NCBI GenBank assembly: GCA_044892525.1
Contig: CM097887.1
Span: forward strand, 117,840,397-117,904,396
Direction: 5' to 3'
From: Schmidtea polychroa
Taxonomy: Eukaryota
Length of the DNA: 64,000 nt
Notes under the pieces: model-generated
Told to the model about the DNA's origin: nothing
The model's input: the letters and a program-made list of their open reading frames with translations, nothing else
The model's database searches: none
Shown: positions 35,191 to 58,640 of the stretch, in pieces
How positions within the stretch are numbered: position 1 is the first letter of the stretch
Layout: each line of letters begins with the position of its first letter
Program-made: the position numbers and the translations under genes

Positions 35191-35911
35191 AATTCCAAAA
35201 TCGCAATCTCATTGGACAACGCAAAAGGCGAAATCAACATGATTTGCTATCAGAATGAGAAACAGATTCAAAGGTTTTGTGATTCAGTATTGAAAATCAA
35301 TTTTCTTTTCACTGAAGATTTAGAGAAAATTGATAAATTATTTGAAAAATCAATTTTAGATATTGAAAACAACGATTTAATTTACAACTACGCACCGAAT
35401 GTTATGGGAAATGCGAATGATATTTTAAGTTATATAATATTGTTGTGTTGGGCCAAGCTCCGAAGGTGTTGGAAAAGCGAACCGAAGAAGGGATAGAGTA
35501 AAATAAAATAAAAACATATAAAAAATACGAGAAACATAAGAGGAAACAAATTAAATATCCAGCAAAGAAATTAGAAAAACTAAATAAAATAACAAAACCT
35601 CTAAAGGAAAAATAAGACAAGAGGGAAGGCACCTAATAAACGACAGTAAAAGAAAAAATAAAATAGCAGAAAATCTAAGAAAAATGAAGAAAAACAAAAT
35701 AAAAAATCATCCATAAGGCTAATTAAAACAAAAAAAAAATGAAGTTACAATAAAATAGCAACAAAACCACAGGAAAAACAGATAAAATAATAAAAAATAG
35801 GAAAATAAATAAAATAATAATAAAAATAGGAAAAAGTCATTAAAATACACCTGATTACATTAAAAAACATAAAAATTATAATAAACAATAATATTACATG
35901 CAAGTCGCGCC

Positions 35912-35938
35912 CTGATTGGACGAAAAGTAATATATAAA
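35912..35938 (+). promoter_or_regulatory. candidate LTR promoter (inverted CCAAT plus TATA)
   Basis: CTGATTGG followed by TATATAAA at 35931-35938, after an A-rich U3-like stretch. Repeated in the 3' LTR (~62157-62183). Confidence 0.45.
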
Positions 35939-38206
35939 GAGCGACAAAAATCTGTAGAGTATCATTCTAACCCGAAACTCTACAGGAAAACTAGGAACAA
36001 TTCACAAGCACAGATTATTGAACCATATTCATTCATCGGATAACATATACCTTTAACGGAGATCGAATTCAGTTCAGTCGAACGAGTCTATCTAAAGAAA
36101 ACTTATATTATTTTGATCTAACACCTTTCGGAGATTTTTGGTAAATTATGTTTTAGATTTTAGCATGATGATTTAAATATTTATTATGAATTTAAAAAGT
36201 CGTTTATAATTCAATAAATTTCATATTTTAAACAAAGGTGTTGCTTTCTCTCTATGATGCTGGCGACGGCGTCCTCTGGAATCCGGGTATGATGCAGTTG
36301 AGTTTTTCGAACGTCCTACGGAGAGGAAATTTACGAATACGAACTCGAGAAATTGAAGTGATAGAACCAGCCCAGGATCCATATGAATTTAGAAACTAAA
36401 GTGATTACTTAATGAATACGAGATTTATGCTAACCAGAGTCATCATGCCCGGATTTCAAATGTCGTGGTCGCCAGGTGAACATTTATTTAATTGATTTTC
36501 TCATAATTCCATTATTTCTATATTGATTTACTAAATAATTAAATTGTATTATTGCACATTTGTTGAGAATGGAGTTGCGATGTGACGGGTCGAGTCGTCC
36601 TTCACACCGGTCCAAGAGCAGTGGGCAGAGATGCGTACTGCCTTGGGTGGGTTGTGAGGAGCGAGGAAACCATGCGAGATGTAACAAATCAAGTAAAGAA
36701 TTCTTTCATCGAGTGTAATCCAACCATCTTAGTCGTCGAAAACCATCCATTGTAGAAACTTCTGAGTGACATAGTTTGAGACAACGATACCTTGGGAACT
36801 CCCAGAGGCATACCATTAGATCTATCATCAGCCTTGTATCCGATCACGTCATCAATAATCTTTGATTTAGGGCCTTATTCGTCTTGCATTGAGAGAAGTG
36901 CCTGTTAGAACGTCTGTCGGAAGGAGTTATTAATTTCGAGTTTCTACGAGAGATTCTCTGTACTAAGCCCATTTCGTATCTTACAATCTGAAGGTGCTTT
37001 GGAAGCTACACCGCCGGGAAGTTAGCGAATAGATCCATCGTCTTGCTTATCGTCGACTCCGGGGAAACTTAATCACCAACCGACAACTAGTCGCTGTCAT
37101 CGATAATAGCCGTTTTAGAGATGAGTGTAAACATCTCTGGATAGTAGATTTGAATACTGGCTATGAGCCCGAAGGAAACGGTCGCCAGTGACATTGGGTG
37201 AGCGTAGTAGACTGCCGGGAAATCGGTTGATAAGATATCTGAAGCCTCAGTCACGAGCGAACGAGTTGACCGTTTTTATCTCAAAACCAATTAGTGGAGC
37301 AAAATCTAAATATGGAATCGATCTTATCTAGTAGATTCGCAATTTAACCCACGCAATTAGATTCACGAGTTTTCTATGACCCCCTCTTAGATTTCCACTT
37401 GTCTAGAAACTCAGCCAGCAATGTCATGTCTAGTGTGCAGATAGTAGATAAATTTATCTCACAATTGCGTACTGGTAAAATAGGAGATGGTTAGACTACA
37501 TGTCCAATCCGACAGCGAGATTACGTCATACTGAATAGTAGAATTTCTACCTAGTCCACGAACACAGGCTGACAATAAATCAGACAATGCATGTATACGA
37601 ACAGACCAGACGACATCTGCTAGCCTACATCCAGGGTAAAACTAATACACCACTACTCACAAACAAGCGTCGTTATGACGACATTTATGGCGCAAGATTT
37701 AAGATGATCAAATAGTAAATTTTGATAAGACTTAAATTGAATTTTGTGGTTCTTTTATGAAGCCGATCACGACGTTTAAAACCCCAATAGTCACCAGTCA
37801 TACCGAACTATGCTTTTATGACCCCACGAGTGCGAAATTTTACGAATATAGTAGGGTGGGGAGTGGGAATGCTATTACTAGGGAAGGATAATTATAATAA
37901 ATTCGACTGTGGTAAATTAATAAAAGCACATTACATAAAAATGGCCAATTTCGGAAAATAAACATAAAATCAAAGTTAGGGTAAATGAATTGTTTTTTTT
38001 TTTTGTGGAATTCCGTTTTCTTTTTCTCTATCAGTATGGATGCTTGCAGACAAATGAGTGTGAATGTTGACCAGCGATATGGGTAGGTGGGTCATTGTCG
38101 AGTAGTATGATTGAAAATAGGGTAAAACTTGCAGTCAAAAATTTGGAAACGACACTCCAATGAACTTTTTTAAACTCTACGATTAACAAAACGTCTTGAT
38201 CTTTAG

Positions 38207-39525: not shown

Positions 39526-40007
39526 TACACTATCAATGCGATTTGTCGATCACCCATTATTGTGTTATGATGTGTTAGATTTAACAATTTAATTAAGGAT
39601 GATTAAAAACGGAATCGGGACCGAAACAAATCGATATTATAGTATAATAGGATGATGATACGAACTGTTTGTGTTTGAAGAGAGCATGCATGAATAAAAA
39701 CGAACCTAAATGAGTTTGAATGAAAATGAGGTTGAATGAATGTGAAAGAGTGCGATGAGAAAAGAAAACGGGAATCACTTATTTTGTTTAGTTTAATCTA
39801 GTAAATTAAAAAGAGGGATGAAAGGAAGTAATGATAATAAAAGTAAATGATTAAAGGGGAAAATATGACGAGGGAATTCCAAGGATGGAATAAAATACAA
39901 AAGTTAGAAATATTAACAATAAAAGTCAAACGAAAATTAAATACCAACCTGACAATATCATTAATAATACCCGCAAAACAAATAATAACAACACATTTTT
40001 TTTAGAT

Positions 40008-40487
40008 ATGTCGGAAGCTAGAAAACATCTACAACAACTAAGCAGATTCATCGACATAGAAAACGATTCCCTAAAGACGTTAAGAGAAAAACTGCAACAA
40101 ATAGAGACCCTAGTACAACAACGCCACGATGCACCTCTGATATCAAAACAAAATTATTTAACCAATAAACTGGGAGCAACAAACACCGATACCGACTTGT
40201 CTACCCATTACCAATGGATGCAGAAACGACTCGACGACCCCGCTCTGAACATCGAATATGTGAGAATACGCGAACAAGTAAAAACTTTGTCTCAGAGAAT
40301 ACGAACATCGATAGTAGAGAAAGCAGCGGCCTTAAGAACTTGTAACATTTGTAAGACGCGACCTGCCAAAATTCTAATTCTACCTTGTGGACACCTTAGC
40401 CATTGTGACGAATGTGCCGTCGGTTTAACGCATTGTTCTCTATGTGTATGTGTGATAAAGGAGAAGCACACGATTTACTTCAGTTAG
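40008..40487 (+). CDS. coiled-coil plus C-terminal IAP/MDM-type RING finger (no BIR domain)
   Basis: CNICKTRPAKILILPCGHLSHCDECAVGLTHCSLCVCVIKEKHTIYFS: C3HC4 RING with an IAP-like aromatic tail. T-tract plus AG acceptor 2 nt before the ATG. Confidence 0.85.
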   Translation: MSEARKHLQQLSRFIDIENDSLKTLREKLQQIETLVQQRHDAPLISKQNYLTNKLGATNTDTDLSTHYQWMQKRLDDPALNIEYVRIREQVKTLSQRIRTSIVEKAAALRTCNICKTRPAKILILPCGHLSHCDECAVGLTHCSLCVCVIKEKHTIYFS

Positions 40488-41062: not shown

Positions 41063-41398
41063 ATTAAGGTCGAGCTGCTGGAAAAGTCCAGCCGGTCAGG
41101 GAAATTAAAACTGAGCTGTGAAAAGTCCAGCCAGTTCGGAGATGATGAAGATTGAGCTGTGAATAGTGCCAGCCAGTCGTAAGATCGAGTTGTTGAATAG
41201 TCCAACCGGTCAGGGGAAGAAGATTGAGCTGTGAATAGTGCCAGCCAGTCGTAAGATCGAGTTGTTGAATAGTCCAACCGGTCAGGGGAAGAAGATTGAG
41301 CTGTGAATAGTGCCAGCCAGTCGTAAGATCGAGTTGTTGAATAGTCCAACCGGTCAGGAGAAGAAGATTGAGCTGTTGAAAAGTGCCAGCCAGTCGTA
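41063..41398. repeat. tandem repeat, 72-bp unit (two ~36-bp subunits), ~3.5 near-perfect copies plus degenerate copies
   Basis: GAAGATTGAGCTGT recurs at 41147, 41219, 41291 and 41363. Confidence 0.95.
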
Positions 41399-42072
41399 AA
41401 GGCCTAAAGTAATAGTGAGATAGCATTTAAGCTACAAGTTGATAACATTTAAATTATTAGTGAGATAGAATATTAAAGCTAGCTAGAAGCAAATTGAGTT
41501 TGAAATATGGAATTTGAATTTAGAAAGGATCAAACGAGCTCGTAAAAGATGATAGAAAAATTCTTTTAGTAAAGAAGGAGAAACGGAAAAGGAAAATGAA
41601 TTAGGAATAATAGAAACAAAGAATAGGTATGAATAGATGATGAATCAAAGAGGAAATAATTAATTAATTAAAGGGGATCCCAGGTAAGTAGACAAAAGTT
41701 CTACAGAATTTTTTTTTTGGTTTAAACCGGTTAAACGAATTTTGTTTTGGTTCCAGAGCAGAACCGAGTAAAAGGAAATAGAGATGAAAGATTAAATGAA
41801 TAAGCGGAACCGCGCAAAAGGATTAAGGAAAATATGGGGGGTAATAAGCAGTAACTGACAACGACCTATCGATATTATAAATGCTAACTATAGATAATTT
41901 ATACGACTATATAGATAATTGTTACTACCCCAAATAGATAATTAAAAATCGACGAAAACTATGGGTTGATGGGTAATTATATTCCGCGGAGAAGTGTATG
42001 AGGGGAAATGAAGAGAAGCATAACAGAGGCCCAAAAACGGTGTCTGTGCTTGAATGTGGTAAAAAGGAATGA

Positions 42073-42417: not shown

Positions 42418-42782
42418 CCGTAGAAAGATCCACGTGAAAAGACAGAAAAGAGTAAGAAAGAATCACGGATAAACCCAACCTTAGATCTTCAAGTAAGCCA
42501 GGAGACGTATTATTTTCAGGAGACGAATTAGATCAACTCAAAAGAGGACGATCATTTAGGCAGCAGAGAGGAATATCACAAGGAGCAAAAAGACCCCACA
42601 AAACACCGATATACGATCAAGAAAACCCCACAGCCGGACATACGCCCAGTCGATCTAGAAGTAGAGAAAGCCTATCCGATATAACAAACAACCTAACCGG
42701 GTCAACAGAAGAATTATCCGTCCATAGTTTAGCTACATCGCTGGAGAATTTAAAAGGAATAATAGAGTTCCAAGAACCAATC

Positions 42783-45700
42783 ATGACGAATGTGGTAAAA
42801 ACCGACGAATATAAAGAAAAATTTAGAGGCGAACCATTCAACGGGAATGCGAACAAGTTGACGACGTTCATAACAAATTTTGAAGTCTATATCGATGTGT
42901 GTGGATGGACATCAGAAGCAATTAGCAAACGGATGCCGTTGTTTTTATGTGATAGCGCATTAGAAGTGTATCTAGAAGCAAAAGAAAGAAATACGAAGTT
43001 AGACAATTGGGAAAGCATCAAAACATTTTTGAGAAAAACATTCGGAGCCAGCAAACCAATAAATCAAGCCCTAGGAGAATTAGCGAGTAGAAAACAAAGA
43101 GCAAATGAATCCATAACGTTGTATGCGAGTGAATTGCGAAGATTGGCAAAGAAGGCCATGAACGGAAACTTGCCGGAGGAAAATTTAATTGGTTATTTCA
43201 TAGAAGGACTGCGCCGAGAAGAGGTAAGGGCCTCGGTGGGATGTCAAATGTGTAAAACACTAGAGGAAGCCATAGATTGGGCCACGAGATGCGAACTCCA
43301 CCTCCCGGCACAAATGAATGTCATGCAAGAGGAAGGAAGAATCGCAACAGCAACGGTAAAAACTGAAAATGGAGAGAACAGCAATCATGAACCAAAAATG
43401 AATCAGTTTATACCCGGTGCGCATCAAATTTTCAAACCACCGCAAGGACGATCAAATGGGAATAACAGTGAACGCAACAACCCGAACAATGGGAATAATT
43501 TTAATAATCGACGAAACACGAACGATAACAAACAATGCCGAACATGCGGTAAACCAGGACATTGGGATAGAGATTGTTACCGAAACGCAAATTGCAATAG
43601 GTGTGGACGACGAGGACACACGGAAAATATATGCCAATTGAGAGGATGTTTTAACTGCGGTCAACCAGGTCATATCTCAAGAGACTGTCGAGAAAGGAGC
43701 CAACAACAACGACCACCACAACGAAATAATAACTATGCACCAAATCCGCAACGACAAAGTAATCCTAGTGAGGGAAAGCAAATGAATGTGATGCAAGAAA
43801 TTTCACAAATGAAGCAGATGATGCAACAAATGATGAGACCGAGACAAGAACCAGTAGCACAACAAACTCAGAATATACGTATGATGAGGAGCACCGAGAA
43901 TCTTAACAACTATGAAGTGCAACAACATGCACAAGAATGGCAAAGACTACAAGCTGAAGAAGAGAGGATAAAAAGAGAGCGAATTCAGCAGCGACAAGAA
44001 CAACCATTACGAATAAATATGATGAGAATGGTAAGGGAGATAAAAGAGCAATATTGTTACAATTACGGTAAAAATCCAAGAGTTGTACCTATGAGCGAAC
44101 CAGAGAAACCGAAAGAAACAATTCCAGCAACAAAAAAGGAAAATTCAACAACATCGCTAAAAGGAAATCAGAGAATTCAGAAAATATTTTGGAAAAAGAT
44201 AAAAGATAAAATCGAAAGAGAAAATGAGAAAACGAAAACAGAAGCAGAAGCAGAAAATAACGAAAATGAAAAACAGAGTAATCATCTAAATCATGATATG
44301 ATACGAGAATTAGACTCAGAGGAGCTAACGATACTCGAGAACAAAAAATTAAAGAAAGTACCAAGAATGAGAAATTTACGAATTAATATGATGAGGACAA
44401 CAAAGAAGGTGTTGTCAACAGATGACGATGAGGATTATGTGAGTAGCCTTGGTGGAGAAATGTTACAGTTAAATGAAAATATCGACCAACTCAGAGAAAA
44501 GATCGGAGCAGATGAGGATGAAAGTGAAAGCGACGTGACAAGCGAAAGCGAAGACGAGAATATCGAAATAAAATTGAGAAAAGAAAGAGAAGAAGCAATA
44601 AAACAAGTAAAGGAAATACTTCCAGTGGTGGTAAGAAACCAGGAATTCATTGACATCATACCATACAGACGCTTCACACAAAGGATAATGAAACTAGAAA
44701 GAAACGAAAAAGATCTAATACCAAACGAGGAAAAAGCGATAATAAAGAAGTATATGGAAAAAATGAAACAAGCGGAGACAACACGCTATGTAATAAAAAT
44801 CGGAACAAGCAAAGGACTCGAGAGAATATGGATAAAAAATGCAGTTACAGACGATCTTTTCGATTGGATAAGAGAACATTTGGGCAGCTCGAGAAAGAAA
44901 GAATACCTGTATCAATATCAAGGAGAACAAATCAAACCAGACATGCACCTAATAGATGCATTGATCTGGCCAGGAGAAACTCAAATATTGAAATTGCATA
45001 AAGAGAAGCAACCAGCGAATATTCACGAATGGGCTAAAGACGCCAAGGCCGAGTATGACTTTAACATCAAGCTGAAGCTGGAACAAATAAAACAATGCAC
45101 CTTGCGACGAAATCTAGATAAATTAATCAAACAAATCCAAGAACAAGTTGAAGATAACTGGGATTTGCTCATAACAAGACGAACTGCAGACATGCATGAA
45201 CTAATGAGCCGACTGCGAGATACAGAACTGCTCAGGATGAGCGATTGGAGAACCATAAATTTGATCCACAAATACGGAAGATTAAAGGAAACGCAACCGC
45301 AGAAATTAGAAATAACCATATGGTTACCAAATGAGGAGAAACGACGAATAAAGATGAGTAATCAGAGTACGGTGGATGACTTAGTAACCAAGATAAACCA
45401 AGAGATAACGGAAAAAGTACGAAGCGAGAGCAGCGATGGTATGATAGATGACGTAGTCATGATGTACGATAAAATAATACTACGGGCTGAAGACGATACC
45501 TCGTTAAGTGAAACGGGAATGTGGGATAATCATCAGATCATCAGAATATTGCCCATGGACGAATTCCGAACAAGAGATGTAACATACCAGAAAGAAATAC
45601 GAGACCGGATGAAAACGCTATACCAAAAATCAGTAGAGATAATCGAAATTTATCAACAATGGCTGAAAGAAAAAGAGCTTCAAGGAAAATTAAAGAAACT

Positions 45701-47708
45701 GAGTACCAGATCCTGCAGACGAACCCCATGGGAAAGGATGTGGAATGCGGAAAACAAAGAATGGGAAATCAGGAAAGGGATTTTCGTGGAAACAGACATT
45801 CGTGAGATAGAAAGCGAATCAGAAGAAGAGGAAGATGAACCTCCAAAATACGAAGAGGACGAAATAGAATCGACATCGAACGACGAAAGCGAAACGGATG
45901 TTACATCAGAAAGTGAAACGGAAACCAGGCATATTCATGCGATGAGAAAGAAGGAACGCGAATACGCCGACATAGACGGGGAAGAGGCAAAAGAAGCGAG
46001 AGAACGAGAAGAGAAGGAAAGGTATAAACAATTAGGTGATATCTTAGCAATGGGAGCAAAAAATCAAAAACGTCAAGTAATAACATTGGCTAACATCATC
46101 CTAAAGACATCAGAGAATATCCACAATCTAAGAGAAATGGCGAAAGCGATTGAAGAATACCGACAATATAACGAATGGTACCCAGAACAGCTAGAACAAA
46201 TTATTAGGAAATGGAGAAACCAAGAATGGGCACAAGATACCCAGGAAAGGTATCGTATCCGAGTCAAGTATCCCGACAAAAGCATTGAGGATATAGAAGT
46301 ACATCCAACAACAAAGATCAGAGAGTTAAAAAAGAAATTAGCATACGAAACTCCATTTCACCTACAACTATTCGGAAAATCGTTGGACGATAATGCAGAT
46401 GTCGGAATAACACCCATGAGATTGGGGGAGATCAATGTATTGACAATGGCAGAAACATTGGGAAAACCGATTAAAAGGAAGAGCAAATCCAGTAAACCTA
46501 CGAAAGGTAGCTTGAGTACACCAAGCCCTAACAAAGTGGCGAGTAAATCGAATGAAACCGAGGAAATCGAGGAAATTATATTGGAAGACAGCGATGAAGG
46601 AGCGGGAGAAAGATCACCAATTCTGGTAAGATGGCCGACCGGAGCCGAAATATGGACAACGAGCCAACCGTCAACTAGCTATCAACAACCACATAAACTG
46701 AACATAGAGGAAATTATCGATAATACAACAGAAACCGAAACTGACGAACAATTCCAACGACAGAAAGGACCAACGAAAGCAACACCGGAAGGCCAAACGG
46801 ACAAAATAATAGAAGAATGGAACGAATGGCTGAGAAACAACGATAGCTCATTGCCCAGAACAGATAATGAGAGAAACCCGAAGTATGAAACGACAAGAGA
46901 AGCCGGAACAATGATGGAAAAACGGGCAAAAGGAAGACCTAGGAAGCAAGGAGAAAAACCAGAATTCAAAACTAGAAAACAACTGAAACAAGAACAAGGA
47001 CAAGTCAGATTAGAGAAACTGGATAAAATAGTGTGGGATCTAAAAGAGGCCCAGCCAACAATCGAAAGAGGCGAAAAATGGATACGAGAGCTAGTAAAAG
47101 ATATGCTAATAATAACGAACACACAATTGCGACGGTTATGGCAACGAAAAGTAGCAAGCGTAGATGCCAGACAGCTATGGAATACAATATCCGGAATAAT
47201 TCCGAAATTAATCAAAGAGAAGACAAAAACCACTAAAACCGATTGGGAAGAGACAAGAAGAGTAATTGAACAATTAACTTTAAACGCAAACGACGACGAA
47301 CATCATTTAGTAGTATTAACGTATCTAATGTACAATTTGATGGGAGTAGCAGCAAGGAAAATACCTAACAAACAATTCGCAAATCATGTAGAAATGACCG
47401 TTACAATCATTGAAAATACAATCGAACCACATATTATCCGCGCCGGTGGGTGGAAAAGACTCATACAAGCACCACGAAAAAACGAGCAAGAGAGATCAAT
47501 GCAAATTCGGTTGAAGAAATTACTAAACGAGCTAGAATGGGAATTGCCATTGAAAGACCCAGCCAGCAGAAAAGCGTCGATTAATTCACTAATGATGACC
47601 ATGATGATATGGATGCTCTGCACCAGTGGAGCCGCGGGATTTACTATTTACGACTGTGACAATTCGATAATAGGAGAAAGATACTCCCTGAGAGATATAG
47701 AGGAATGA
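42783..47708 (+). CDS. gag: extended Gag: capsid, 3 CCHC knuckles, 3 ubiquitin-like domains, AT-hook, Bcl-2-like domain, env signal peptide
   Basis: Capsid-like FNGNANKLTTFITNFE...MPLFLCDSALEVY; CRTCGKPGHWDRDC, CNRCGRRGHTENIC, CFNCGQPGHISRDC; KGRPRK; RELVKDML...HIIRAGGW. Ends in the hydrophobic LMMTMMIWMLCTSGAAG followed by FTIYDC. Confidence 0.9.
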   Translation: MTNVVKTDEYKEKFRGEPFNGNANKLTTFITNFEVYIDVCGWTSEAISKRMPLFLCDSALEVYLEAKERNTKLDNWESIKTFLRKTFGASKPINQALGELASRKQRANESITLYASELRRLAKKAMNGNLPEENLIGYFIEGLRREEVRASVGCQMCKTLEEAIDWATRCELHLPAQMNVMQEEGRIATATVKTENGENSNHEPKMNQFIPGAHQIFKPPQGRSNGNNSERNNPNNGNNFNNRRNTNDNKQCRTCGKPGHWDRDCYRNANCNRCGRRGHTENICQLRGCFNCGQPGHISRDCRERSQQQRPPQRNNNYAPNPQRQSNPSEGKQMNVMQEISQMKQMMQQMMRPRQEPVAQQTQNIRMMRSTENLNNYEVQQHAQEWQRLQAEEERIKRERIQQRQEQPLRINMMRMVREIKEQYCYNYGKNPRVVPMSEPEKPKETIPATKKENSTTSLKGNQRIQKIFWKKIKDKIERENEKTKTEAEAENNENEKQSNHLNHDMIRELDSEELTILENKKLKKVPRMRNLRINMMRTTKKVLSTDDDEDYVSSLGGEMLQLNENIDQLREKIGADEDESESDVTSESEDENIEIKLRKEREEAIKQVKEILPVVVRNQEFIDIIPYRRFTQRIMKLERNEKDLIPNEEKAIIKKYMEKMKQAETTRYVIKIGTSKGLERIWIKNAVTDDLFDWIREHLGSSRKKEYLYQYQGEQIKPDMHLIDALIWPGETQILKLHKEKQPANIHEWAKDAKAEYDFNIKLKLEQIKQCTLRRNLDKLIKQIQEQVEDNWDLLITRRTADMHELMSRLRDTELLRMSDWRTINLIHKYGRLKETQPQKLEITIWLPNEEKRRIKMSNQSTVDDLVTKINQEITEKVRSESSDGMIDDVVMMYDKIILRAEDDTSLSETGMWDNHQIIRILPMDEFRTRDVTYQKEIRDRMKTLYQKSVEIIEIYQQWLKEKELQGKLKKLSTRSCRRTPWERMWNAENKEWEIRKGIFVETDIREIESESEEEEDEPPKYEEDEIESTSNDESETDVTSESETETRHIHAMRKKEREYADIDGEEAKEAREREEKERYKQLGDILAMGAKNQKRQVITLANIILKTSENIHNLREMAKAIEEYRQYNEWYPEQLEQIIRKWRNQEWAQDTQERYRIRVKYPDKSIEDIEVHPTTKIRELKKKLAYETPFHLQLFGKSLDDNADVGITPMRLGEINVLTMAETLGKPIKRKSKSSKPTKGSLSTPSPNKVASKSNETEEIEEIILEDSDEGAGERSPILVRWPTGAEIWTTSQPSTSYQQPHKLNIEEIIDNTTETETDEQFQRQKGPTKATPEGQTDKIIEEWNEWLRNNDSSLPRTDNERNPKYETTREAGTMMEKRAKGRPRKQGEKPEFKTRKQLKQEQGQVRLEKLDKIVWDLKEAQPTIERGEKWIRELVKDMLIITNTQLRRLWQRKVASVDARQLWNTISGIIPKLIKEKTKTTKTDWEETRRVIEQLTLNANDDEHHLVVLTYLMYNLMGVAARKIPNKQFANHVEMTVTIIENTIEPHIIRAGGWKRLIQAPRKNEQERSMQIRLKKLLNELEWELPLKDPASRKASINSLMMTMMIWMLCTSGAAGFTIYDCDNSIIGERYSLRDIEE

Positions 47709-49480
47709 GACAGGCATCTCCGAATAAATTAGATATAGTAAAAAAGAAAGTCTCCTATCACGTATACCAAGAATCAGATTTCATTAGAACACAAGCTAGA
47801 GAATGCGTAGTATCGAAGAAAGTGTTGGCATATTACTGTGGACAATACTCATATTCAACCCTTATATTACCGGGATTAGATAAAGAAATAGTACCTATAC
47901 AACGGGAAGACTGTAAAGAACTTTTTAGAACCGGAGCGATGAGAATCAGGGATGGAGTAACAATACACGGACAAAGCGGAATGATCAAGACGGAAAGTAT
48001 CTATGTAGCCGGACGAGTAAAATCAACTGATGGATCATGTAACGGAGGCACATATACGATCAGAGGAGAAGTGATCTCGGGAGTAGTAGTAATTGAGTCC
48101 TACACAGTGGAGTTGAAGGAATACGAAGCACAATTCGACGCAAACAACTATCAAATGAAAACCAACCCAGCATGCAGAGCTACGGAAAACGTGTGTAGAA
48201 CGGGAATTTCGACTATAATATATGAAGCTAACACCCAAAAATGCCGACTGCAATTGTTAAAAAGTGCTCTATTCAATGAAGTAAAAGGAGAAATTTACGA
48301 AAACGAGGATGACGATGAAGAGAATGGAAACGTAAGGATGCGAAATGGGAAACCAGTCCCACCATCCCCCAAAGAAAAGAGACTCACAACCCAAAAAACA
48401 CCAACGGCATTAATTACAGATGATCCAGACGTCGGCATGAGATTCATTAGAGAAAAAGAGACCACCAAATGTGACAGCATAGTATATCGGACGAACTACG
48501 CAGGTATCTACATGTCAAGGCAAGTAATAGACCGAGCAGTGGGAAAGGTAGCAACAGAGGACGTAAAATTGTACCTGTACGCTAATAACAAAATGGACTT
48601 TTTATTTCATCGAGGACAAACGACAATGCAAAAAGTGTATTACGATCTTATACAAAATGACTGTTCATTGAATAAAGAGATACTAAAAACAAAATTAGCT
48701 ATCGCAATAACACACCCAGATAACACAATGCCATCACTCCCGTTACCGGATGGACATTTTGGTAGAATGGTGGGAGAGGTAATGTATACATATGCATGTA
48801 CCAAGACATTTGCGCGACTGCCAAGAAAGCCCACAATTCCACCAGGGAAATGTGCAAACGAATTAGAAATTAGCTACAAAGGGCGGAACAGATTCGTTCA
48901 ACCAGTCACTTGAATTATGAACCCAATTGGATTTTATCCGAACATCTTTAACTGTTCAAATGCATACGGACCGTTATATGAAAAACCCGATGGGAAATGG
49001 ATAATGTTACCGGTAAAAACCGAAGTACAAGAACCTAAAAAGTTTGGATTAATAGAACTCGCAACAGAGCAAGATTTCAAACCAATTGATGTGTCAAAAG
49101 CAGGTATGTACTCACCAGAGGATTTAGAAACAGCACGACTAAACGTACTATTCCCAGCAAGGCGAGAATCCATTCTATCAAATATGGTTACCATAACTGG
49201 GGGAACGAATTTCCAGTCAGGCCCCAATTACGAACTATTATTGTCACCCGATCATTTTCAACAAGCCACGTCGAACATGATGAAAGCAATGTGGGGAAGA
49301 TTTCTAGTGTTCGGTCAAATGATGGCAGGAATATTGGGAATCATCTTAATTATTCAGATCGTCAGGGTGATATTGACTCAAATGTTAGCGTGTTTTGATA
49401 TCTATAAGAGAGAAAAGAAAGTAAATTGGAAGTTGATAGTAGGTTTTCTACCATTTTTGGCAAAAACAATGGTGTTGCAC
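47577..49480 (+). CDS. env: chuvirus-like (class III, gB-related) envelope glycoprotein, split by a 1-nt deletion (~47708) and a TGA (48911-48913)
   Basis: Signal peptide 47577-47639, then YDC...YSL.D...C, ECVVSKKVLAYYCG, GSCNGG, NDCSLNKEIL, GEVMYTYAC, CANELEI...FVQPVT(R)IM, LFPARRE, then a TM segment ~49300-49390. This Cys pattern matches Jingchuvirales G as I recall it. Confidence 0.85.
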
Positions 49481-49959
49481 GGTCATTCTAAAGACATACA
49501 TAGAATAAAACGATTAATCAAAATACTGACAAAAATAAAAGGGACTGACGAGGAGGTCGGTAGACGATTTCGGAAAACAATGTATGATGAGGCAACGAGA
49601 GCGCAACTGAAAAAGAACAAACCAAAATTCCTGGACAGATTTAGAAATCGGTCAAACAGCAGCGATAGCGATGATGACGACAACGGGAATGACAAATACC
49701 CATATCCAAGTAGAAACCCGAATGAAAAGCCAATAGAAACAGCGCCATATTGGGAGAAAGAAAAAACAAATACCTGGATAGCCAACGGAAGTTACATACC
49801 ACCGGATATCGTTGGACAACAAACAGCTTTGACCATGACACAAAATATGTATCCACAGTTACCAAGTCAACCAGGGATGAACTATATGCCAACCCGAAGA
49901 ACGAAAAGCGTAGACCAAGCGGATGACGTAAGAACGATAGCAGTGATGAGTTCACCAGG

Positions 49960-52900
49960 AGGCGCGGCAGTAACAGTCATGATCCAAATCAACGGGAAAG
50001 AGACAAGCGCAATGATAGATACCGGAGCAAATGTATCAGCAATAGCAATCAACCAAATACCCAGTAAATGTTGGAAAGACATCGAACAAACAACTATCCA
50101 TATCATCGCATGCAGTAAAGAAACCGTAGACGTAGTAGGAAGATGGTGGACTACGTTAAGATATCAAGATAACGAAATTGAAACGTATCTAGCGGTGATA
50201 CCCAAACTGAGTGAACCATGTATAATCGGAACGGATTTAATGCCGGAATTGTTCAAGGAAGTAGTAATCGATTTAACAACAATGTGTCTAAAAGACAAAA
50301 CGGGTAGAATATGCAAGATGAACGCAATAATTAGATGTCCGGAGAAAATAATTGTACCAGCAAAATCACAAATGATATGTCAAATAAAAGTGGATGCAGG
50401 AATGGAAGGAGAAGTCATTTTTGAGCCAAGCAAATCATTCGAAAAACGACGAGAATTACCATTAGCAAGAGAAATAATAACAATAAATGAAGACGGTGAA
50501 ATACCAATCAACATCACAAATTTCGAGGAAGAAGATAAAATCATATATGAAAATGAAAGATTGGGTAGATTGACACCCATGATAGACATCGAATTACCAA
50601 AAATCACCAACGAAACAACGAAAGCCGACGAATTATGGATAATTGACAGCACCCTGCTAACGGAAAAAGAAAAGGAAAGACTTCAACAATTATTGATAGA
50701 ATATAAAGATATATTCGCAATTTCGGATTTAGATTTGGGAGCATGCGACGTTACATTACACGCAATACCATTAATAGACGAAACTCCAATCGCACTACGT
50801 CCATACAAACTAGCCGAGAAGCAAAAAGAGATAGCCGAAGCAGAAGTACAAAAAATGCTAGATGCACAAGTGATCGAACCAAGTTGTTCGCCATGGCAAT
50901 TTCCAGTAGTCATGGTGAAGAAAAAAGATGGTACTCAGAGATTCTGTATCGATTATCGGAAATTAAATGCAGTAACAAAAAGAGACACATACCCGTTACC
51001 AGACATCAATGAGATGTTACTTATGTTACAGGGGGCCGCATATTTTACATCTTTAGATCTGAAAAGCGGATATTGGCAGATCAAAGTCAAGGAGGAAGAC
51101 AAAGAGAAAACAGCATTCACATTGGGTCGAGATCTATACCAATTCAGGAAAATGCCGTTCGGACTGACCAATGCCCCAGCATCATTCCAGAGATGTATGA
51201 ATTTTGTCACACATGGGATCAAGCAGTGTATGGTATATATTGATGATTTATTAATATATTCAGCAACATTCGAACAACATTTGGAAGATATCAGAAACGT
51301 GTTCGTTCGATTACGACAATGGAAATTGAAACTCAAACCATCAAAGTGTGATTGGGCAAAAGAGAAAGTTACGTTCTTAGGACACATAGTGTCAGCAAAA
51401 GGCAAAGAACCAGATCCAAGAAACATAGAAAAAATAAAAACATGTCCAGCACCAAAAAATGTCACCCAAGTTCAAGAATTTCTCGGATTATGCGGATATT
51501 ATCGAAAATTCATCAAAAACTATGCAGGTATTGCGAAACCAATACAGGACTTAGTGAAAAAGGATATTTCATTTATTTGGGGTGCAGAACAACAAAAAGC
51601 ATTTGAGACATTGCGAGATAAATTAATTGAAGCTCCGATACTAGTACATCCTGATTTCAAGAAACCGTTCTTATTGGCAACAGATGCAAGTGGATATGCA
51701 GCCGGAGCGATATTAGGACAACTGGATGAAGAGGGAAAAGAAAGAGTGATTGGATACTACAATAGAACGTTTAAAAAGCACGAGAAAAACTATTCCGTAA
51801 CCGAGAGAGAAGCGTTAGCAATCATACAAGCGATTAAACATTTTCGATATTTGTTATGGGGACACGAAATATGTATCACAACAGATCACCAACCATTAGT
51901 ATGGCTTGGTCAACACAAAGAAGCTTCAAGTAGATTGATGCGATGGGCAATGCAGTTACAAGAATATTCACCGTTCATAAAATTCAAAGCGGGAAGAGCG
52001 AATGCCAATGCGGATTGTATGTCCAGATTTATCTTTCCAGATTTAGTAGATCACGAAATGCAACGAATATGTCTGATGGTAGCAGAAGATTTAGATTTTT
52101 GCCAATTACGGAAAGACCAACAGGAGGATACAGAGTTGAAACAAATCATTGAATATGTGAAAACAGGGAAAGCAGAGGTATATGAGAAAGATCAAAAATT
52201 GAAGGAGCATATGGATAAACATCGACATCGATATATTATCGAGAAAGACTGGTTGTTGATAATGGATGGAGAAAAAAGACTGATGTGCATTCCCGAGAAT
52301 AGACGTAAAGAGCTGCTAACACAATACCATGACGGAAGACTCGGAGGACATATGTCATCTAAAAAGACGTTGGCACGAATGAAACAAAAGTATTTTTGGC
52401 CTACATTGACCGAGGATGTAACGGAATGGGTGAAAAATTGCATAACTTGCGCAACCAGAAAAAACACGGGAACAAAATGAAAGGCACCATTAAAGCCAAT
52501 GCCAGTACCAGCAGAACCAATGACCATGATATCAATGGACGTGGTCGGTCCACTACCAGAATCAGATAGAGGAAATATATATATATTGGTAATCACAGAC
52601 TATTTGACGAAATTCCCCGAAGCATTCGCTATGGCAGATCAGAAAGCAAGAACAATCGCAAAAATACTAGTAGAGGAGATATGCTGTCGATATGGAACAC
52701 CAAAACAGATATTAACTGATCAAGGAACAAATTTCATGAGCGAAATAATGAGCGAAGTCACCAACTACTTCAAGATCGCAAAATTAAGAACATCACCGTA
52801 CCATCCACAAACTAATGGTATGACGGAAAGATTCAATGGAACACTGATTCAAATGTTATCAAATTATGTCGATCGTCATCAACGCGATTGGGACGAGTAT

Positions 52901-53370
52901 ATAAAATTATGTTTAATGGCTTACAGAATGTCGATTCACGCGTCCACAAAGATGAGTCCGTTCAAGTTGATGTACGGCAGAGAATGCAATATGCCAATGG
53001 ATTTGGAGTATCAGCCACCAATATCACAGTACATGGAAATAGACGATTATGTAACCAAGTTCAAGGAAAGAATGCAGGAAATCTGGGAAACTGCAGGATT
53101 GAATATAAAATTTTATCAGGAAAGTTACAAAGATCTACATGATAGAAAGAAAAACGTCAAACAGCATACGTTTCAAACAGGCGATTGGGTGATGATCGAA
53201 ACACCAGAATTAATTCCAGGAACCACCAAAAAATTACAACGAAACGGTAAAGGTCCGTATGAGATTCTATTCATCGGAGAAACCAATGTGAGAGTACGAT
53301 TAGTAAACAATCCCTTCACGAGGCCAATATATGTAAATGTGGCACGATGTAAGCCAATACCGAAAACAGC
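49960..53370 (+). CDS. pol: pol: aspartic protease, reverse transcriptase, RNase H, integrase with GPY/F module; in-frame TGA at 52478-52480
   Basis: IDTGA (DTG at 50018); RFCIDYRKLN, YFTSLDLKSGYWQI, MPFGLTNAPASFQ, YIDD (51236); TDASG, EREALA, TDHQPL; HHCC (52328-52449); MDVVGP, TDQGTNF, NGMTERFN; GPY at 53252. Confidence 0.97.
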
Positions 53371-53439
53371 CACCAGCCAGCCGGAAGGGAGAACATTAAC
53401 AACAAGATCACAAACGTATAGAATAAATATGTTACAGCA

Positions 53440-56400
53440 GATAAACGAACCAACAGGTAACCGATTGGGGTTACAACCATCAGAAGCCGAGAAAATCATA
53501 AAAGAAGTGAAAGCTAAAATGCCCGGATGGGCAGAAGACAGATTAGATTTTGAGATATTGGGAGGTCTGCTAACAATGATCGAAAATTATGCAAACCGAG
53601 AAAGAACACACCCATTACTCAGGGTAGTAAAAAGTCAATGGCCTATATTATTTACGATCACAGACCATTATGGAGATACACCGCTGCACAAACTTTTAAA
53701 GGTCGGGAATAATGAACAAATACTGGAAACGATCGAAGCATTTCGCGATTGTAACGTTTCAACAGATCAAGAAAATAACCAAGGTTACACTCCACTAATG
53801 ATAGCAGCCAATCGGGATAAAGCTAAAGATATTATCATCGCATTACTTGAAACTGGGTCAAAGATAACTACACAAGACCACAACCAGAAAAATGCACTAC
53901 ATCATGCAATCGAAGGGAAAAGTACGGAAGCCTTCATAATCTTAGTAGACCTATTATCATATGAGGATAATAGGGAGATAGGAAACATGTATGACGGGTT
54001 ATTAACTGCAATCAAAGAGAAATTAATAACAATTACTGGAATACTAATTGCATGGAGGAACCCGATCAAAAACGATTATATGGTAGATATAAACGAAACA
54101 TTTACCAAAGGAGAAAATACCTTGATGAGGGAAGCGATGAGAGGACATCACCTATTCGAAATTCCAAATCAACTACTACAACGTGGCATAAAATTTTCAA
54201 ATCACAAAGACGAACAACTAATCAGAAAACGAATTACCAACTTCGAAAAAGCTATATCTCAATTTACCGATAAAGTACAAGTAAAATTTTGGGAAACCGT
54301 GAGTGTATTATATATGATGGAAACTATGAACAACATTCGAGAAAACTACCTAAGTATTATTCAAGTGCTTACGGCGGAAGAACGCATTAACAGTTCAAAC
54401 AAGAAAAAGATAAAAATAAAGAAAGTAAAAACAAGAGAGTCTGAGGAACAAGTCGATCAAATAATAACCGATATAGCAACAACAAGTAAACCAAAGATAA
54501 TAAACTCAGACCAGGAGATAATAATACGCAAAGCCAAAGAGGTGTTCTTTGAAGAAATGCAAGATCTATCCGATAAAGCGATACTAGCAAAAATAGCAAA
54601 AACAGTACACACCTACGCAAGAGACCAGACCACAAATCTAGACATAGAAAAAATAAAAACATTTATACCACTAGCATTCACCTTACCAACAAAAGACTCA
54701 AGAACACCATTACAACAAGCCATTTTAGCAGCAAAAGAAAACAGAGCAATAACCATCATAAGAATCCTTGGAGACTTCGGAGAAGAATCTAATGCAAAAA
54801 ATGAACAAGGAGAAACAGCAATGATGTATGCAGCCATAACAAATATACGCCCGAAAACATTACATATACTACATCGATCGGGATCAAGACTGGACGAAAT
54901 ATCAAACGAAGGAAATTCTACCATGGATTGGGCAACCATACAACCAAACTTGGAAATGATTAGGTTCATTTGTAAAAATGCTACAAGAACTGAGGTAGAA
55001 AATATCTGTAAAAACACGTCACAGTTCCAATGGAACACGATACGGATGAACTTAGAAGCCATGAAGTTATTGCTAACATGGAAAATACCGCAAAGCAATA
55101 AATATGCAATAAATATAAATGAGTTCTACGAAAACGGAGAAAATGCTATGGTTAAAAATACACTAACAAAAGGAGGAACTCCGAAAATCATAATGATCGT
55201 ATTGAACAGAGAAGACCTCAAATTCACGCAAAATCTAAACGAACAAAAGCGGACCGGAAAACATCGCCGTATACAATTGAGAGAACTGGTAAAAGAATGG
55301 AATAGAAAGAGACATGTAGCAACAGGCAGAAAGGAGTTCGAATTCGAAGCAAAATTAGCAAGGAATAGAGTGTTAACGGCATATCACAGATTATTGAACG
55401 ACATAAATGTCGAGGACGACATTTCAAACGATAGCGGGGGAGATAAAGACGACAAAGACGACGATAATAATGAACAAGGTCGAAACGGGAATGGAGAGAA
55501 AGAGAAATCAGAGGAAAATAATCAAGGAAATAACGACTCAGGTATAAAAAAGGAGGAAAATAAACCGGGAAGCCGAACAAAGGAAGAGGAAAAGACGAAT
55601 AATGGGAAACAGAGGGTATGCCCACTTTTTACCAACAAGGAAATGGAGACAAATATGATGGTAATGATACTCATACTAACAATGATAGAAATGATAACAG
55701 CCCACGGTGGAATGGGAACGATAAAAGAGGCCAAGGAAACGGAAAACAAAGACAACAAGGAGAAGGAACTAAAGCAGGAAAAGAAGAAGCAAGTACGAGA
55801 GCAACAATGGGATTTAAAAGAAGAATGGGATCTAAAAGAAAGGTGCATACTAGGAAGATGTATGTCGAGAGCATATCGGAGACTAGTATTAATAAATGAA
55901 GATACAGAACTGATAACGGAAGTAAGAATTCAAGAAGCATATCGGAATCGAGACGGGAAGAGAATAACTAAAGTCAAAGGGAAGGAGGTACACCTGAGAA
56001 AAGGAGGTGAGGTAGTGATAACGCAACTCCAGCCAAGAAAAGAACACAAAGTCTGCATTTCAAGATTAGGACCGGGTGAAGACTGTCTACAATATGTAAC
56101 ACAGCAACAACCTCCAAAAGAATACACAGTATGCATCTGGAGAAACGATACAGCGAGAGAATGTCGACGATACCCTGGGAAAAGAGGGAGGAAAAGAAAA
56201 ATCAATGACGAAAAAGATGAGCAAGGAAAACGCAAGAAAACCGATGAGAAATATCAAGACAATTATGTATCCGAGGAGGAGATGGAGAAAATACAAAGAA
56301 TGGCAAAGGAAGGTATGAACGAGGAAATAGCAAGAATACGAGGAATGATAAAAGGAAATGGCAAAGACGGTAATCTAAAAAACACGGAAGCAATATCAAC

Positions 56401-56656
56401 AATAACGAACAAGGAAAAAGCAGAAATTATAGGCGTAAAACAGATGATGTGGATCAGCGGCATAATAATAACAGGGGCCTTTTTAATCATAACGGGGGGG
56501 ACAATAAAAATAATCAAAGATAGGCGGCATCGCGGAGAACTAGAAATGGCCAGAATAAGAAATTTTCAACATCGTGTAAGACGACCAAGTAATATCAAGC
56601 AGGAACAATGGGTGGAGGCCTGGAATGCTCAGCGCCCTCCAAGCTCACGTATATAG
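53440..56656 (+). CDS. C-terminal extension of the integrase ORF: two ankyrin-repeat modules, then an internal signal peptide, an ectodomain and a TM segment
   Basis: GDTPLH, GYTPLMIAA, QKNALHHA (53670-53960); SRTPLQQA, GETAMMYAA, GNSTMDWA (54700-54975); METNMMVMILILTMIEMITAHG (55643); TM MMWISGIIITGAFLIITGG (56444). Confidence 0.8.
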
Positions 56657-57184: not shown

Positions 57185-57273
57185 ATATAACCTAAAATAG
57201 CAATGTAAATAACTGTAAATAAAAATACGAAACTGTACCAGTAACAAATATATGTATATATATAATTATAGAA

Positions 57274-58640
57274 ATGGATAAGCAACAACGAGAGGAATTC
57301 AAAGAAATTGTTGAACAAGTCAGAAAGTCCACCACAATTCGAATACACAACCATGTAACGTGTGGAATATGCAAGAACTTATTAAGAGAACCTCACCAAA
57401 CCAGATGTGGATGCAGAATGTGCAGAGAATGTGTAGAGGAGGTAATAAAGAAGGGACCACAATGGTGCCCAGTATGCAAAGAAACAATGATAACAAGTTT
57501 GGGAGATACAAACGAAGATAAAGCAGCTGTAAAAGATATGATGAATGCAAACCTAGGATGCAAAAACACCCCATGTAATTGGCGAGGAGTGATATGGGAA
57601 GTGAGGCAACATATGGAGCAATGTGAATATAAAATCAGTCAATGCAAACGTTGCCAAGAAGAGATTAAAGTCAATGAAGAAGCAGAACATCAAAGTCGAT
57701 GCGAAGAAAGACTGGAGAAATGTGAGTATTGCGGAGAAACCGACACCTGGAAAAAACTAATCAGTCAACATCACAACATACAAGAGGAGAAAGTGTGCGC
57801 AGAATTCAGAGGAGAATGCCCCAACAAATGCGATAAACCCGGAGTAATAAAACTCGCTCAACATCTGAAAGAATGTGAAAGGAAAAAGATAAGGTGTGTG
57901 TTAGGAAAATGGGGATGTCAGAAACAATTACACCGAGGGGAATTACCCCAACACACGCGGAAATATGGTCAACGGTATTACAAGAAAACGAAAGGAAAAC
58001 CGAAAACTTAGAAAGAGAAATAGTCTCGCTAAAAGCGTTGGTAAAAGAACTATTGGAAGAAAAGGAAGCATTCGAAGAGGCGAGAACAAGCACAAAGATA
58101 CAAACAGATCTAGTAGAAACTAGCAACATTATGGTGAAAGAACTACATCAAAAAGTAAGCGAATTAAACCTCAACGAATTAATACCAACGGCTCCATACA
58201 TATGGAAGATAACGGGAGTAAAAGAGAAGATGCAGAGAGCGAGAAATGGAAAGGATACAACATTACTAAGTCCAGCATTCTACTCATGGAAAAACGGGTA
58301 TAAAATGAAAATGAAAGCATACCCCAATGGGGATGGAAGTGCATACGGAACGCATTTCTCAGTATTCTTCTTGATATGCAAGGGGCTATACGACGAGTTA
58401 ATAGAATGGCCATTCAAAGCAAAAATAGACCTCGCAATGATGAACTATCAAAGTATACATGAACAGAGTTTCCATACAGCGGGAAACCTCGTATGTTACC
58501 AAAGGCCCTTGGAAGAAGAAGGATCAGCAACCGGAGCACCGAACTTCATCCTACAGCGGAAAGTAGAAGACATGACGAAAAACGACACCATATACATAAA
58601 AATAGCGGTGAGGCGAGACGGGAAGAGTAGGACTGAGTAG
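57274..58640 (+). CDS. TRAF: intronless TRAF homolog (RING, TRAF zinc fingers, coiled coil, MATH), frameshifted at ~57950
   Basis: CGICKNLLREPHQTRCGCRMCRECV...CPVC; CKNTPCNWRG...HMEQC; CPNKC; YIWKI...SPAFYS..GYKMKMKAYPNGDG...THFSVFF...YDELIEWPF. The two ORFs join at a CA-repeat slip. Confidence 0.92.

Follow-up and report, generated by a model that had tools for sequence, protein, structure and literature searches.

How could a single reading frame that encodes Gag, cargo, Env, and Pol be divided into separate proteins? The question is raised by a giant long terminal repeat (LTR) retrotransposon of Schmidtea polychroa (GenBank assembly GCA_044892525.1). We analyzed 64,000 nucleotides of contig CM097887.1 (positions 117,840,397 to 117,904,396, forward strand), hereafter the window, which is AT-rich eukaryotic DNA and holds one such element, from about position 35446 to past 64000. 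The polyprotein of about 4,600 residues extends from a first ATG at 42783 to a stop at 56656 and is split into four pieces in this copy: the frame changes near 47660-47708, and in-frame stop codons occur at 48911 and 52478. A first-pass annotation, made by a model from the letters alone, had pointed to recurring motifs of the form (R/Q)-(I/M)-N-(M/V)-M in this polyprotein as candidate cleavage sites. We estimate at about 85% the probability that these motifs are recognition sites of the element's own retroviral-type aspartic protease; from sequence and a structural model we infer the cleavage itself. The motifs are conserved in two other families, follow the pattern of Ty1 cleavage sites, and are gripped in register by a protease dimer in a model of binding. 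The sites would share the consensus P3-P2-P1↓P1′-P2′ = (R/Q/H/N)-(I/M/V)-(N/H/R/A/C)↓(M/V/A/L)-(M/L), for example RIN↓MM, where the arrow marks the predicted cut.

The motif recurs beyond chance expectation

All ten motifs of that annotation are present on the plus strand, in the frames of the polyprotein. Seven of them, hereafter the main sites, are QMNVMQE (twice), NIRMMRS, RINMMRM, RINMMRT, HIHAMRK, and RINMLQQ; the further three are RTIAVM, KMNAII, and RICLMV (Table 1). The pattern [RQ][IM]N[MV]M, picked post hoc with the sites already known, occurs four times in the polyprotein against a mean of 0.011 to 0.015 after shuffling, and none of 2000 shuffles reached four under any of three schemes. 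When no pattern was assumed, the four polyprotein pieces yielded three exact repeated 7-mers, where shuffles gave a mean of 0.017 to 0.023 and never more than one (300 shuffles, two schemes). Two of these repeats, QMNVMQE and LRINMMR, belong to the motif, and the third, DVTSESE, is an unrelated acidic word. A six-frame scan of the whole window with [RQHNK][IMV][NHR][MVA][ML] gave 12 matches, namely the seven main sites and five scattered matches outside the polyprotein. With each main site left out of the scoring matrix in turn, the seven ranked 8, 8, 1, 1, 1, 12, and 1 among 4720 scored segments. They score 15.4 to 19.0 bits with the matrix for which they are the training set, and the next best match in the window scores 7.8 bits.

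Such repeats could be an artefact of composition or duplication in an A-rich, Q/M/N/R-rich region, or they could reflect a nucleic-acid signal (ATG-ATG starts or splice sites). The element has a strong A skew, the polyprotein shows no enrichment of the loose pattern hydrophobic-N-x-hydrophobic (23 occurrences against 16 to 18 expected; 116 to 259 of 2000 shuffles reach 23), the DVTSESE repeat is unrelated to the motif, and the gene models of many relatives stop or jump right after RIN. However, shuffles that preserve local composition fail to yield the repeats, and the motifs are conserved across families that are about 43% identical. Codons vary between motif copies, P1′ is Val or Ala in several, and the DNA around the copies aligns no better than shuffles, with no duplication above the null; the motif signal is therefore at the protein level. 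We consider the artefact largely refuted already and assign it next to no probability. An origin by DNA duplication was rejected both for the motif copies and for the two DVTSESE tracts, as alignment scores are within the null range. The DVTSESE tracts (44532-44552 and 45897-45917) use different codons, including different serine codon families, and may represent a second linear motif.

Position of the motifs relative to domains

The sites include the boundaries at which a Ty3/gypsy protease needs to cut: after the capsid, before the protease, and between RNase H and integrase. The first-pass annotation had placed the seven main sites in linkers. A linker position holds for QMNVMQE after the capsid (43311) and after the third zinc knuckle (43779), for RICLMV in the gap between RNase H and the integrase zinc finger (52064), and for RINMLQQ in the gap between the integrase and the first ankyrin repeat (53420). 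For the sites at 43872, 44010, 44379, and 45930, linker status comes from sequence composition and the absence of Pfam matches. A single-sequence model of the cargo region (from 44556, spanning only the site at 45930) gave no usable fold, with a mean predicted local distance difference test score (pLDDT) of 36.

KMNAII is not in a linker. Among the three motifs proposed to flank the protease and RNase H, RTIAVM and RICLMV occupy boundary positions, whereas KMNAII overlaps the first beta-strand (model residues 141-145) of a dUTPase-like domain and is not conserved (the relative P0156 has RICMLKSEV there). We rejected it as a site; an upstream register, RIC[KM][ML], is a possible site near it. 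Three other words were rejected as well: TINLI (45252) is not kept in the relative P0167, EINVL (46428) is probably the last strand of a ubiquitin-like domain, and SINSL (47577) lies outside the top 32 matrix matches.

Conservation of the sites in related elements

Searches with the Gag region returned 18 proteins (14 + 4), of which P0164, a nematode zinc-knuckle match, was dropped from all counts, leaving 17 relatives. The five Gag-region sites are conserved at homologous positions in two other diverged families. After the capsid, a hydrophobic-small-x-hydrophobic word (QVAVL-type, QITLM, or QIATM) is present in all 17 relatives. After the knuckles, Q[IV]NV[MI][QK]E is present in 15 of the 17, and the remaining two end or diverge earlier. 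Two relatives span the whole site cluster, with QITLM, QVNVM, NIHMM, RINML, and RINML in order in P0167 and QVAVL, QINVM, RINVM, RINMM, and HINML in P0168. The three sequences are identical in 11 of 20 motif columns versus 76 of 409 background columns. With a held-out matrix, built from the window's seven sites only, the five highest scores in P0167 fell on its five homologous positions (8.9 to 17.3 bits; next, 6.7), and the four highest in P0168 likewise fell on homologous positions (16.2 to 19.0 bits; next, 7.0). When full-length relatives (3064 to 5000 residues) were sought with the Gag region, none of 769 candidates passed.

An additional candidate that the first-pass annotation had not listed, KMN↓QFI between the capsid and the knuckles, is the best-conserved 5-residue segment outside these two domains. 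It could be a further cut site or, instead, a conserved nucleocapsid motif. The longer stretch at 43395-43445 (NQFIP..AHQIFKPP) is likewise the best-conserved outside the capsid and the knuckles and can be read in the same two ways.

More distant relatives were examined through Pol. The top 150 matches of a Pol profile search were mostly gene models with multiple reverse transcriptases (RTs), and 10 of them fall in the window's clade. In a tree of RT-RNase H stretches (102 of 189 retained after removal of near-duplicates), the window belongs to a clade of 11 (Shimodaira-Hasegawa support, 0.98), five members of which have Env in frame with Pol. Among 19 position-defined linkers from ten clade relatives, 16 contain a hydrophobic-small-x-hydrophobic word, a pattern chosen after inspection, compared to 2.3 in shuffles (0/5000). 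By class, the word stands in all nine RNase H/integrase linkers, where shuffles give 1.3, and in 7 of 10 pre-protease segments, where they give 1.0 (0/5000). The window-trained, held-out matrix gave 25/1000 on the same 19 linkers. Outside the clade, the loose word is enriched at RNase H/integrase linkers (13 of 53 against 4.1; 0/2000) and is not enriched before proteases (4 of 45 against 2.2; 323/2000). As judged from these sequences, the motif is an old, degenerate gypsy-type signal in a strict, local form.

Read by eye, a post-integrase site is present as QISML in P0009, VCNML in P0034, EVTLL in P0029, and MVSMV in P0117, and is not evident in P0012, P0044, and P0083. Sites within one element also resemble each other by eye (EVTVM and EVTLL in P0029; RICAL, QISML, and SISAI in P0009; P0117 likewise), hinting at coevolution of the sites with each protease. 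Some clade relatives carry extra aspartic-protease-like domains: P0009 has three (one behind the integrase), P0034 has two, and P0117 has one behind the integrase.

A model of the protease with a site peptide

The element's protease retains an intact fold. The model of the protease region (mean pLDDT, 76.8; 35-sequence alignment) matches the Ddi1, foamy virus, and XMRV proteases. RTIAVM sits in a low-confidence tail that precedes the fold (pLDDT, 40 to 46), and a cut at RTIA↓VM would make the catalytic Asp residue 26 of the released enzyme, close to Asp25, the catalytic residue of HIV-1 protease. When two protease chains were modeled together with a 34-residue peptide spanning the site at 44379, the complex scored 0.82 and the best of three controls 0.04. 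The mark that this complex passed was also attained in 51 of 78 solved complexes and in 2 of 108 mismatched pairs. The model runs share at least 75% of contacts, and the pLDDT of the partner is 53 to 54. Peptide residues 14 to 24 of the 34 alone are in contact with the enzyme, at the DTGA loops and at residues 66 to 71, the probable flaps. Because Ile643 and Met646 pack on opposite protomers against the same residues (42, 43, 45, and 70), the Asn644↓Met645 bond would be centered near the catalytic Asp. The complex model thus supports a binding register, not cleavage.

Cutting by a host protease instead of the element's enzyme was also considered, given that the element carries apoptosis and ubiquitin cargo and that Ddi1-type host proteases have the same fold. 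However, the element encodes an intact DTG protease of its own, and the flavor of the motif varies between elements, as expected if it follows each one's own enzyme. Caspase sites carry an Asp and furin sites are dibasic, and neither pattern is seen at the sites here. We therefore regard a host protease as extremely improbable.

Comparison with known cleavage sites

Published systems are compared below as described in the sections of the cited sources that were available to us. The Ty1 sites VPTIN↓NVHTS and TARAH↓NVSTS have hydrophobic P2/P2′ and polar P1/P1′ residues (PMC6952103). The sites of the window share hydrophobic P2 and P2′, a polar P1 (Asn, His), and a polar P3, so that IN↓NV and AH↓NV of Ty1 compare with IN↓MM and IH↓AM here. 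The Ty1/foamy-type combination of hydrophobic P2/P2′ with a polar or small P1 is therefore present, but the polar P1′ is not: P1′ is mostly Met or Val (M, V, A, and L overall). Moreover, Ty1 has three sites in a compact, copia-type polyprotein, whereas about nine or ten sites, several of them near-identical, are found here. From this comparison, the sites would work like Ty1 sites, but their specificity is not identical.

In Ty3, Gag3 is cut into 1-207 and 1-233 products (PMC6525542). There, as predicted here, cuts after the capsid and before the nucleocapsid leave a spacer, and the RT chain ends soon after an RNase H anchor (PMC6525542; PDB 4ol8 and 7q5b). The chain in 4ol8 ends three residues past that anchor, an end that is the end of the construct and not in itself proof of a cut, and the anchor precedes RICLMV by 12 residues in our element. 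The RNase H/integrase site here is thus about 12 residues further along than in Ty3, and extra sites after the nucleocapsid and the integrase, the cargo, and the in-frame Env are additional differences.

Foamy virus sites resemble those of yeast retrotransposons (PMC3185560), a likeness shared by the sites of the window. In foamy viruses, Gag undergoes a single cut close to its end and is otherwise left intact, Env has its own gene, and the protease stays joined to RT (PMC7828637). Of these features, the last may hold here too: because no clear site precedes RT, the protease may stay fused to it.

Beyond retrotransposons, lentiviral dUTPase and retroviral spacer peptides are examples of captured domains or peptides that the viral protease frees from a polyprotein, and flavivirus-type processing combines a viral protease with signal peptidase, the latter freeing membrane proteins. 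By analogy, the element would follow a similar logic, but with several hundred residues of host-like cargo per block and in an LTR retrotransposon.

Weighing the evidence

Several observations weigh against cleavage of these motifs by the element's protease. Nearby non-motif stretches (NQFIP, IFKPP, and SLGGE) are as conserved as the sites, so that conservation alone is not specific to cleavage, and the 17 Gag relatives amount to only two independent families (15 and 2 members) with gene models of unknown accuracy. RTIAVM and RICLMV are absent from the top 32 matches of the matrix trained on the seven main sites, and that matrix is weak on distant linkers when these are taken per class (21, 39, and 17 of 300). 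Unsupervised motif discovery on 19 and 49 distant linkers did not rise above shuffles (118.4 against a mean of 114.5 and a maximum of 120.3; 215.0 against 212.3 and 218.2). No clear site separates the dUTPase-like domain from RT. In this copy, the Env signal sequence is below the hydropathy threshold and was judged by eye and homology. The score of the complex model may reflect memory of solved protease-peptide structures, peptides are outside the calibration of the tool, and the controls included no non-site peptide of this polyprotein. Finally, retroviral sites are usually degenerate (PMC3185560), so near-identical 7-mers are unusual.

The last point bears on a different explanation, in which the motifs are never cut and serve as short linear motifs for binding or oligomerization, such as docking on the capsid or on a host adaptor. 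The near-exact 7-mer repeats are stricter than typical retroviral sites, and four copies are spaced 31 to 123 residues apart and adjoin Q/M-rich, probably helical stretches, some of which are conserved beyond the motif. Foamy viruses also show that the Gag of a retroelement can stay largely uncut (PMC7828637). However, the pattern is found at the N terminus of the protease and at the RNase H/integrase junction, where cutting is required, and the motif both matches Ty1 sites and enters the cleft of the modeled protease in the expected register. We consider uncut binding motifs very unlikely and continue with recognition by the element's own protease.

Predicted processing of the polyprotein

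Under this reading, one frame of about 4,600 residues would encode Gag, cargo, Env, Pol, and more cargo, and we infer the following products. The protease would free the capsid, the nucleocapsid, three short spacer peptides (31, 46, and 123 residues), a block of about 517 residues with two ubiquitin-like domains, a block of about 570 residues with a ubiquitin-like and a Bcl-2-like domain, the Pol enzymes, the integrase, and an ankyrin block of about 760 residues. Host signal peptidase would create the far ends of the 570- and 760-residue blocks by cutting at two internal signal sequences, one before Env and one before a C-terminal membrane protein. We propose that the polyprotein crosses the endoplasmic reticulum membrane, that signal peptidase opens Env and the C-terminal membrane protein, and that the element protease makes the cytosolic cuts. 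Pol would at first be tethered behind the Env anchor and then be released at RTIA↓VM. Ahead of Env, a hydrophobic segment exceeds the threshold in five relatives and is recognized by eye in the window; further such segments follow Env and, twice, the integrase (in the window and in 7/7 clade members that reach there). By hydropathy, the layout of the C-terminal membrane protein is repeated in 7/7 clade relatives that extend beyond the integrase.

The first-pass annotation envisaged that the protease cuts cargo modules out as separate proteins. Their release is probable in the form of the three blocks, which begin at the sites at 44379, 45930, and 53420, but not module by module. Four of the seven main sites cluster behind the knuckles and bound the pieces of 31, 46, and 123 residues, which have no known domain. 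No high matrix score is found between the sites at 44379 and 45930, between the ubiquitin-like domains, or around the Bcl-2-like domain. The three beta-grasp-like domains and the Bcl-2-like domain between the knuckles and Env are weak Pfam matches below cut-off. No pairwise similarity among the three ubiquitin-like domains was found in the two comparisons made, the PDB gave no credible sequence matches for the Bcl-2-like, second ubiquitin-like, and C-terminal ectodomain regions, and the domain after HIHAM has no Atlas match.

The idea that new modules arrive with a cleavage tag fared less well. In its full form, every captured module would have its own tag, and tagged modules would be what the element acquires, with the site acting as the boundary of a plug-in cassette. 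Sites do bracket the first cargo block and precede the ankyrins, and one case fits: the segment that starts at HIHAM (residues ~1147-1364 of piece A, with a helical part and a ubiquitin-like domain) is absent from P0167, where the flanks join via one acidic linker. This gap, seen in an unverified gene model, could mean that the segment was inserted together with its tag or was deleted in P0167, or it could reflect a false intron. The other observations argue against the idea. The post-integrase site is followed by a protease-like domain in P0009 and P0117 and directly by a membrane protein in P0029 and P0034; because the site is present in relatives with other cargo behind the integrase, it predates the ankyrins. 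In P0168, two sites are separated by about 140 additional residues, within which the best score is 3.9 bits. No tag separates the ubiquitin-like domains or flanks the Bcl-2-like domain, and no duplication above the null is seen at the DNA level around the motifs. Acquisition of modules tag by tag is therefore unlikely; most sites are old residents, and cargo was inserted between or behind them.

A broader idea, possible but improbable in our estimation, is that a strict tag serves Burro-type elements as a modular expression system. Host genes would become fixed when they land behind a tag, bring one, or quickly gain one, and the tags of each family would drift with its own protease. Together with signal peptidase, one 14-kb frame could then yield ten or more proteins, including capsid-free regulators of apoptosis and ubiquitin. 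The HIHAM segment would be one event of tag acquisition.

Organization of the element

Planarians carry giant gypsy LTR retrotransposons known as Burro or GYPSM1 (Jurka 2007; Grohme 2018), described in PMC6431247. The element of the window is Burro-like by its match to published architecture descriptions. Gag with Retrotrans_gag and three CCHC knuckles (two or three in Burro), an in-frame mononegavirus-type Env between Gag and Pol, a dUTPase-like domain that separates protease from RT, ankyrins, accessory genes of the MATH/TRAF and RING types, and a length of more than 28 kb are all shared with the published elements (PMC6431247). Burro elements also carry ubiquitin/SUMO-like and Bcl-2-like cargo (PMC6431247); the putative counterparts here are in the expected places, with matches below Pfam cut-offs. 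A single open reading frame (ORF) is shared too, with about 4,600 residues here versus 4,873 and 5,140 published (PMC6431247). In contrast to that description, this copy is broken in three places, and its TRAF/MATH domain is in a downstream ORF, not in the polyprotein or upstream. A BIR domain, a feature of Burro1, had no Pfam match in 13 ORFs of at least 150 residues. The available sections of PMC6431247 contain no cleavage sites, processing map, or C-terminal membrane protein.

LTRs flank gag and pol, as in Ty3/gypsy elements (Metaviridae), and Pfam matches follow the order capsid, CCHC knuckles, mononegavirus-type fusion protein, protease, RT, RNase H, integrase, and ankyrins, with RING and TRAF/MATH accessory ORFs outside the polyprotein. 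Ty3 Gag-Pol is the top PDB match for the RNase H-integrase stretch. The starts of the LTRs are separated by 26.2 kb, and the element, whose far end is beyond the window, is at least 28.5 kb long, in agreement with the size of Burro elements (an internal region of up to 25 kb; more than 30 kb with LTRs). Because the two LTR copies differ by 1 mismatch and 48 gap columns (2310 columns; 97.9% identity), the insertion is young. As these differences are almost all gaps, some breaks in this copy could be assembly errors and not decay.

Env lies between the Bcl-2-like domain and the protease, in a frame that matches Gag at its start and Pol at its end, and it holds two of the breaks, the frame change and the stop at 48911. 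Env-Pol is unbroken in P0009, P0012, P0042, P0082, and P0083. P0076, outside the 11-member clade, has a different glycoprotein-like segment in the place of Env, in frame with Pol. With these six relatives, the in-frame Env-Pol layout may be wider than planarians. Homology of the integrase to relatives stops near residues 292-319 of piece D.

The TRAF-like gene (57223-58640) is near-complete, with RING, zinc fingers, coiled coil, and MATH. Three more ORFs at 58802-61348 have no Pfam matches; two are coiled-coil-like, and one weakly matches the end of P0168. The leader upstream of gag contains a tandem array (41147-41399; 3.5 copies of a 72-base unit, 98% alike). Outside the element, the window holds a second, decayed Env of the same type (18103-19589; about 29% to 34% identical), a FLYWCH zinc-finger ORF fragment that is probably from a DNA transposon (20621-21076), and short inverted-repeat elements (6578-7059, 20047-20287, and 29358-30543).

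TABLE 1 Features of the element, in window coordinates. Arrows mark predicted cuts; E, expectation value.
Feature	Coordinates	Strand	Evidence
5′ LTR, matchable part only (3′ copy runs off the window)	35446..37708	+	Aligned to 61693-64000
Upstream accessory RING-finger ORF	39894..40487	+	Pfam zf-C3HC4_3 E 4e-8; homologue in P0162, P0166
Polyprotein piece A: Gag (ATG 42783), spacer region, cargo blocks, Env start	42456..47708	+	Shifts to piece B in the 47660-47708 overlap
Capsid core, Retrotrans_gag	42936..43217	+	Pfam E 9e-10; profile match to dArc2 capsid E 3e-5
Candidate site after capsid, QMN↓VMQE	43311..43331	+	QITLM/QIATM in family 3, QVAVL-type in family 2
Extra candidate between capsid and knuckles, KMN↓QFI	43395..43412	+	Similar sequence in 17/17 Gag relatives
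Three CCHC zinc knuckles (nucleocapsid)	43536..43691	+	Pfam zf-CCHC E 8e-12; translation
Candidate site after nucleocapsid, QMN↓VMQE	43779..43799	+	Q[IV]NV[MI][QK]E in Gag relatives
Candidate site NIR↓MMRS	43872..43892	+	NIHMM in P0167; RINVM in P0156, P0168
Candidate site RIN↓MMRM	44010..44030	+	RINML in P0167; RINMM in P0168
Candidate site RIN↓MMRT, opens first cargo block	44379..44399	+	RINML in P0167, HINML in P0168; complex model
Two putative beta-grasp (ubiquitin-like) domains	44736..45575	+	Sub-cut-off Pfam: DCX2 E 0.07, PI3K_rbd E 0.003
Candidate site HIH↓AMRK, opens ~220-residue segment missing in P0167	45930..45950	+	Leave-one-out rank 12/4720
Ubiquitin-like domain	46221..46475	+	Sub-cut-off Pfam ubiquitin E 0.004; weak PDB ubiquitin-fold matches E 0.3-1.3
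Bcl-2-like domain	47241..47453	+	Sub-cut-off Pfam Bcl-2 E 0.014; no PDB sequence match
In-frame Env: putative internal signal sequence, ectodomain, membrane anchor	47589..49396	+	Pfam Monjiviricetes_fusion E 6e-38, 1e-21; anchor hydrophobicity
Candidate protease N-terminal site RTIA↓VM	49931..49948	+	Similar pattern in 7/10 pre-protease segments of clade relatives
Aspartic protease, catalytic DTG at 50018	49970..50251	+	Pfam RVP E 4e-8; model folds like Ddi1, foamy, XMRV proteases
KMNAII, rejected as site	50315..50332	+	Start of dUTPase-like domain; not conserved
dUTPase-like domain between protease and RT	50321..50578	+	Foldseek dUTPases E 5e-5; strands in model
RT and RNase H	50915..51967	+	Pfam RVT_1 E 3e-37, RT_RNaseH E 1e-38
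Candidate RNase H/integrase site RIC↓LMV	52064..52081	+	RICAL in P0009; pattern in 9/9 clade linkers
Integrase (zinc finger, core, C-terminal part), in-frame stop 52478	52289..53400	+	Pfam Integrase_H2C2, rve
Candidate site after integrase, RIN↓MLQQ	53420..53440	+	Leave-one-out rank 1/4720
Ankyrin-repeat block	53726..54985	+	Pfam Ank_2 E 4e-17, 2e-7
C-terminal putative membrane protein: signal-like segment 55649-55705, ectodomain without family match, anchor 56450-56506, stop	55649..56656	+	Hydropathy
Downstream TRAF-like accessory gene, two overlapping frames	57223..58640	+	Pfam zf-C3HC4 E 3e-5, TRAF-mep_MATH E 1e-25
3′ LTR, cut by window end	61693..64000	+	Alignment to 5′ copy

Implications for Burro-type elements

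Cutting at linker motifs by a retroelement protease is a textbook principle. The motifs are real and conserved, and they probably function as protease sites; the element family and the kind of processing are already known. A literature search found no published map of Burro cleavage sites; the 2026 Burro1 paper, Grohme 2018, Jurka 2007, and supplements were outside this search and could hold one. To our knowledge, Burro elements are the largest known LTR retrotransposons. A role of Burro1 in supporting stem cells and regeneration in planarians has been reported (cited in PMC13465017). Unless tag-driven capture of cargo is demonstrated, the value of the finding is practical and not conceptual: the motif gives a residue-level, testable processing map of a Burro-type polyprotein of about 5,000 residues. 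This map predicts which Bcl-2-like, ubiquitin-like, and ankyrin blocks would exist free, where the boundaries of constructs would lie, and which N termini would be expected in proteomics.

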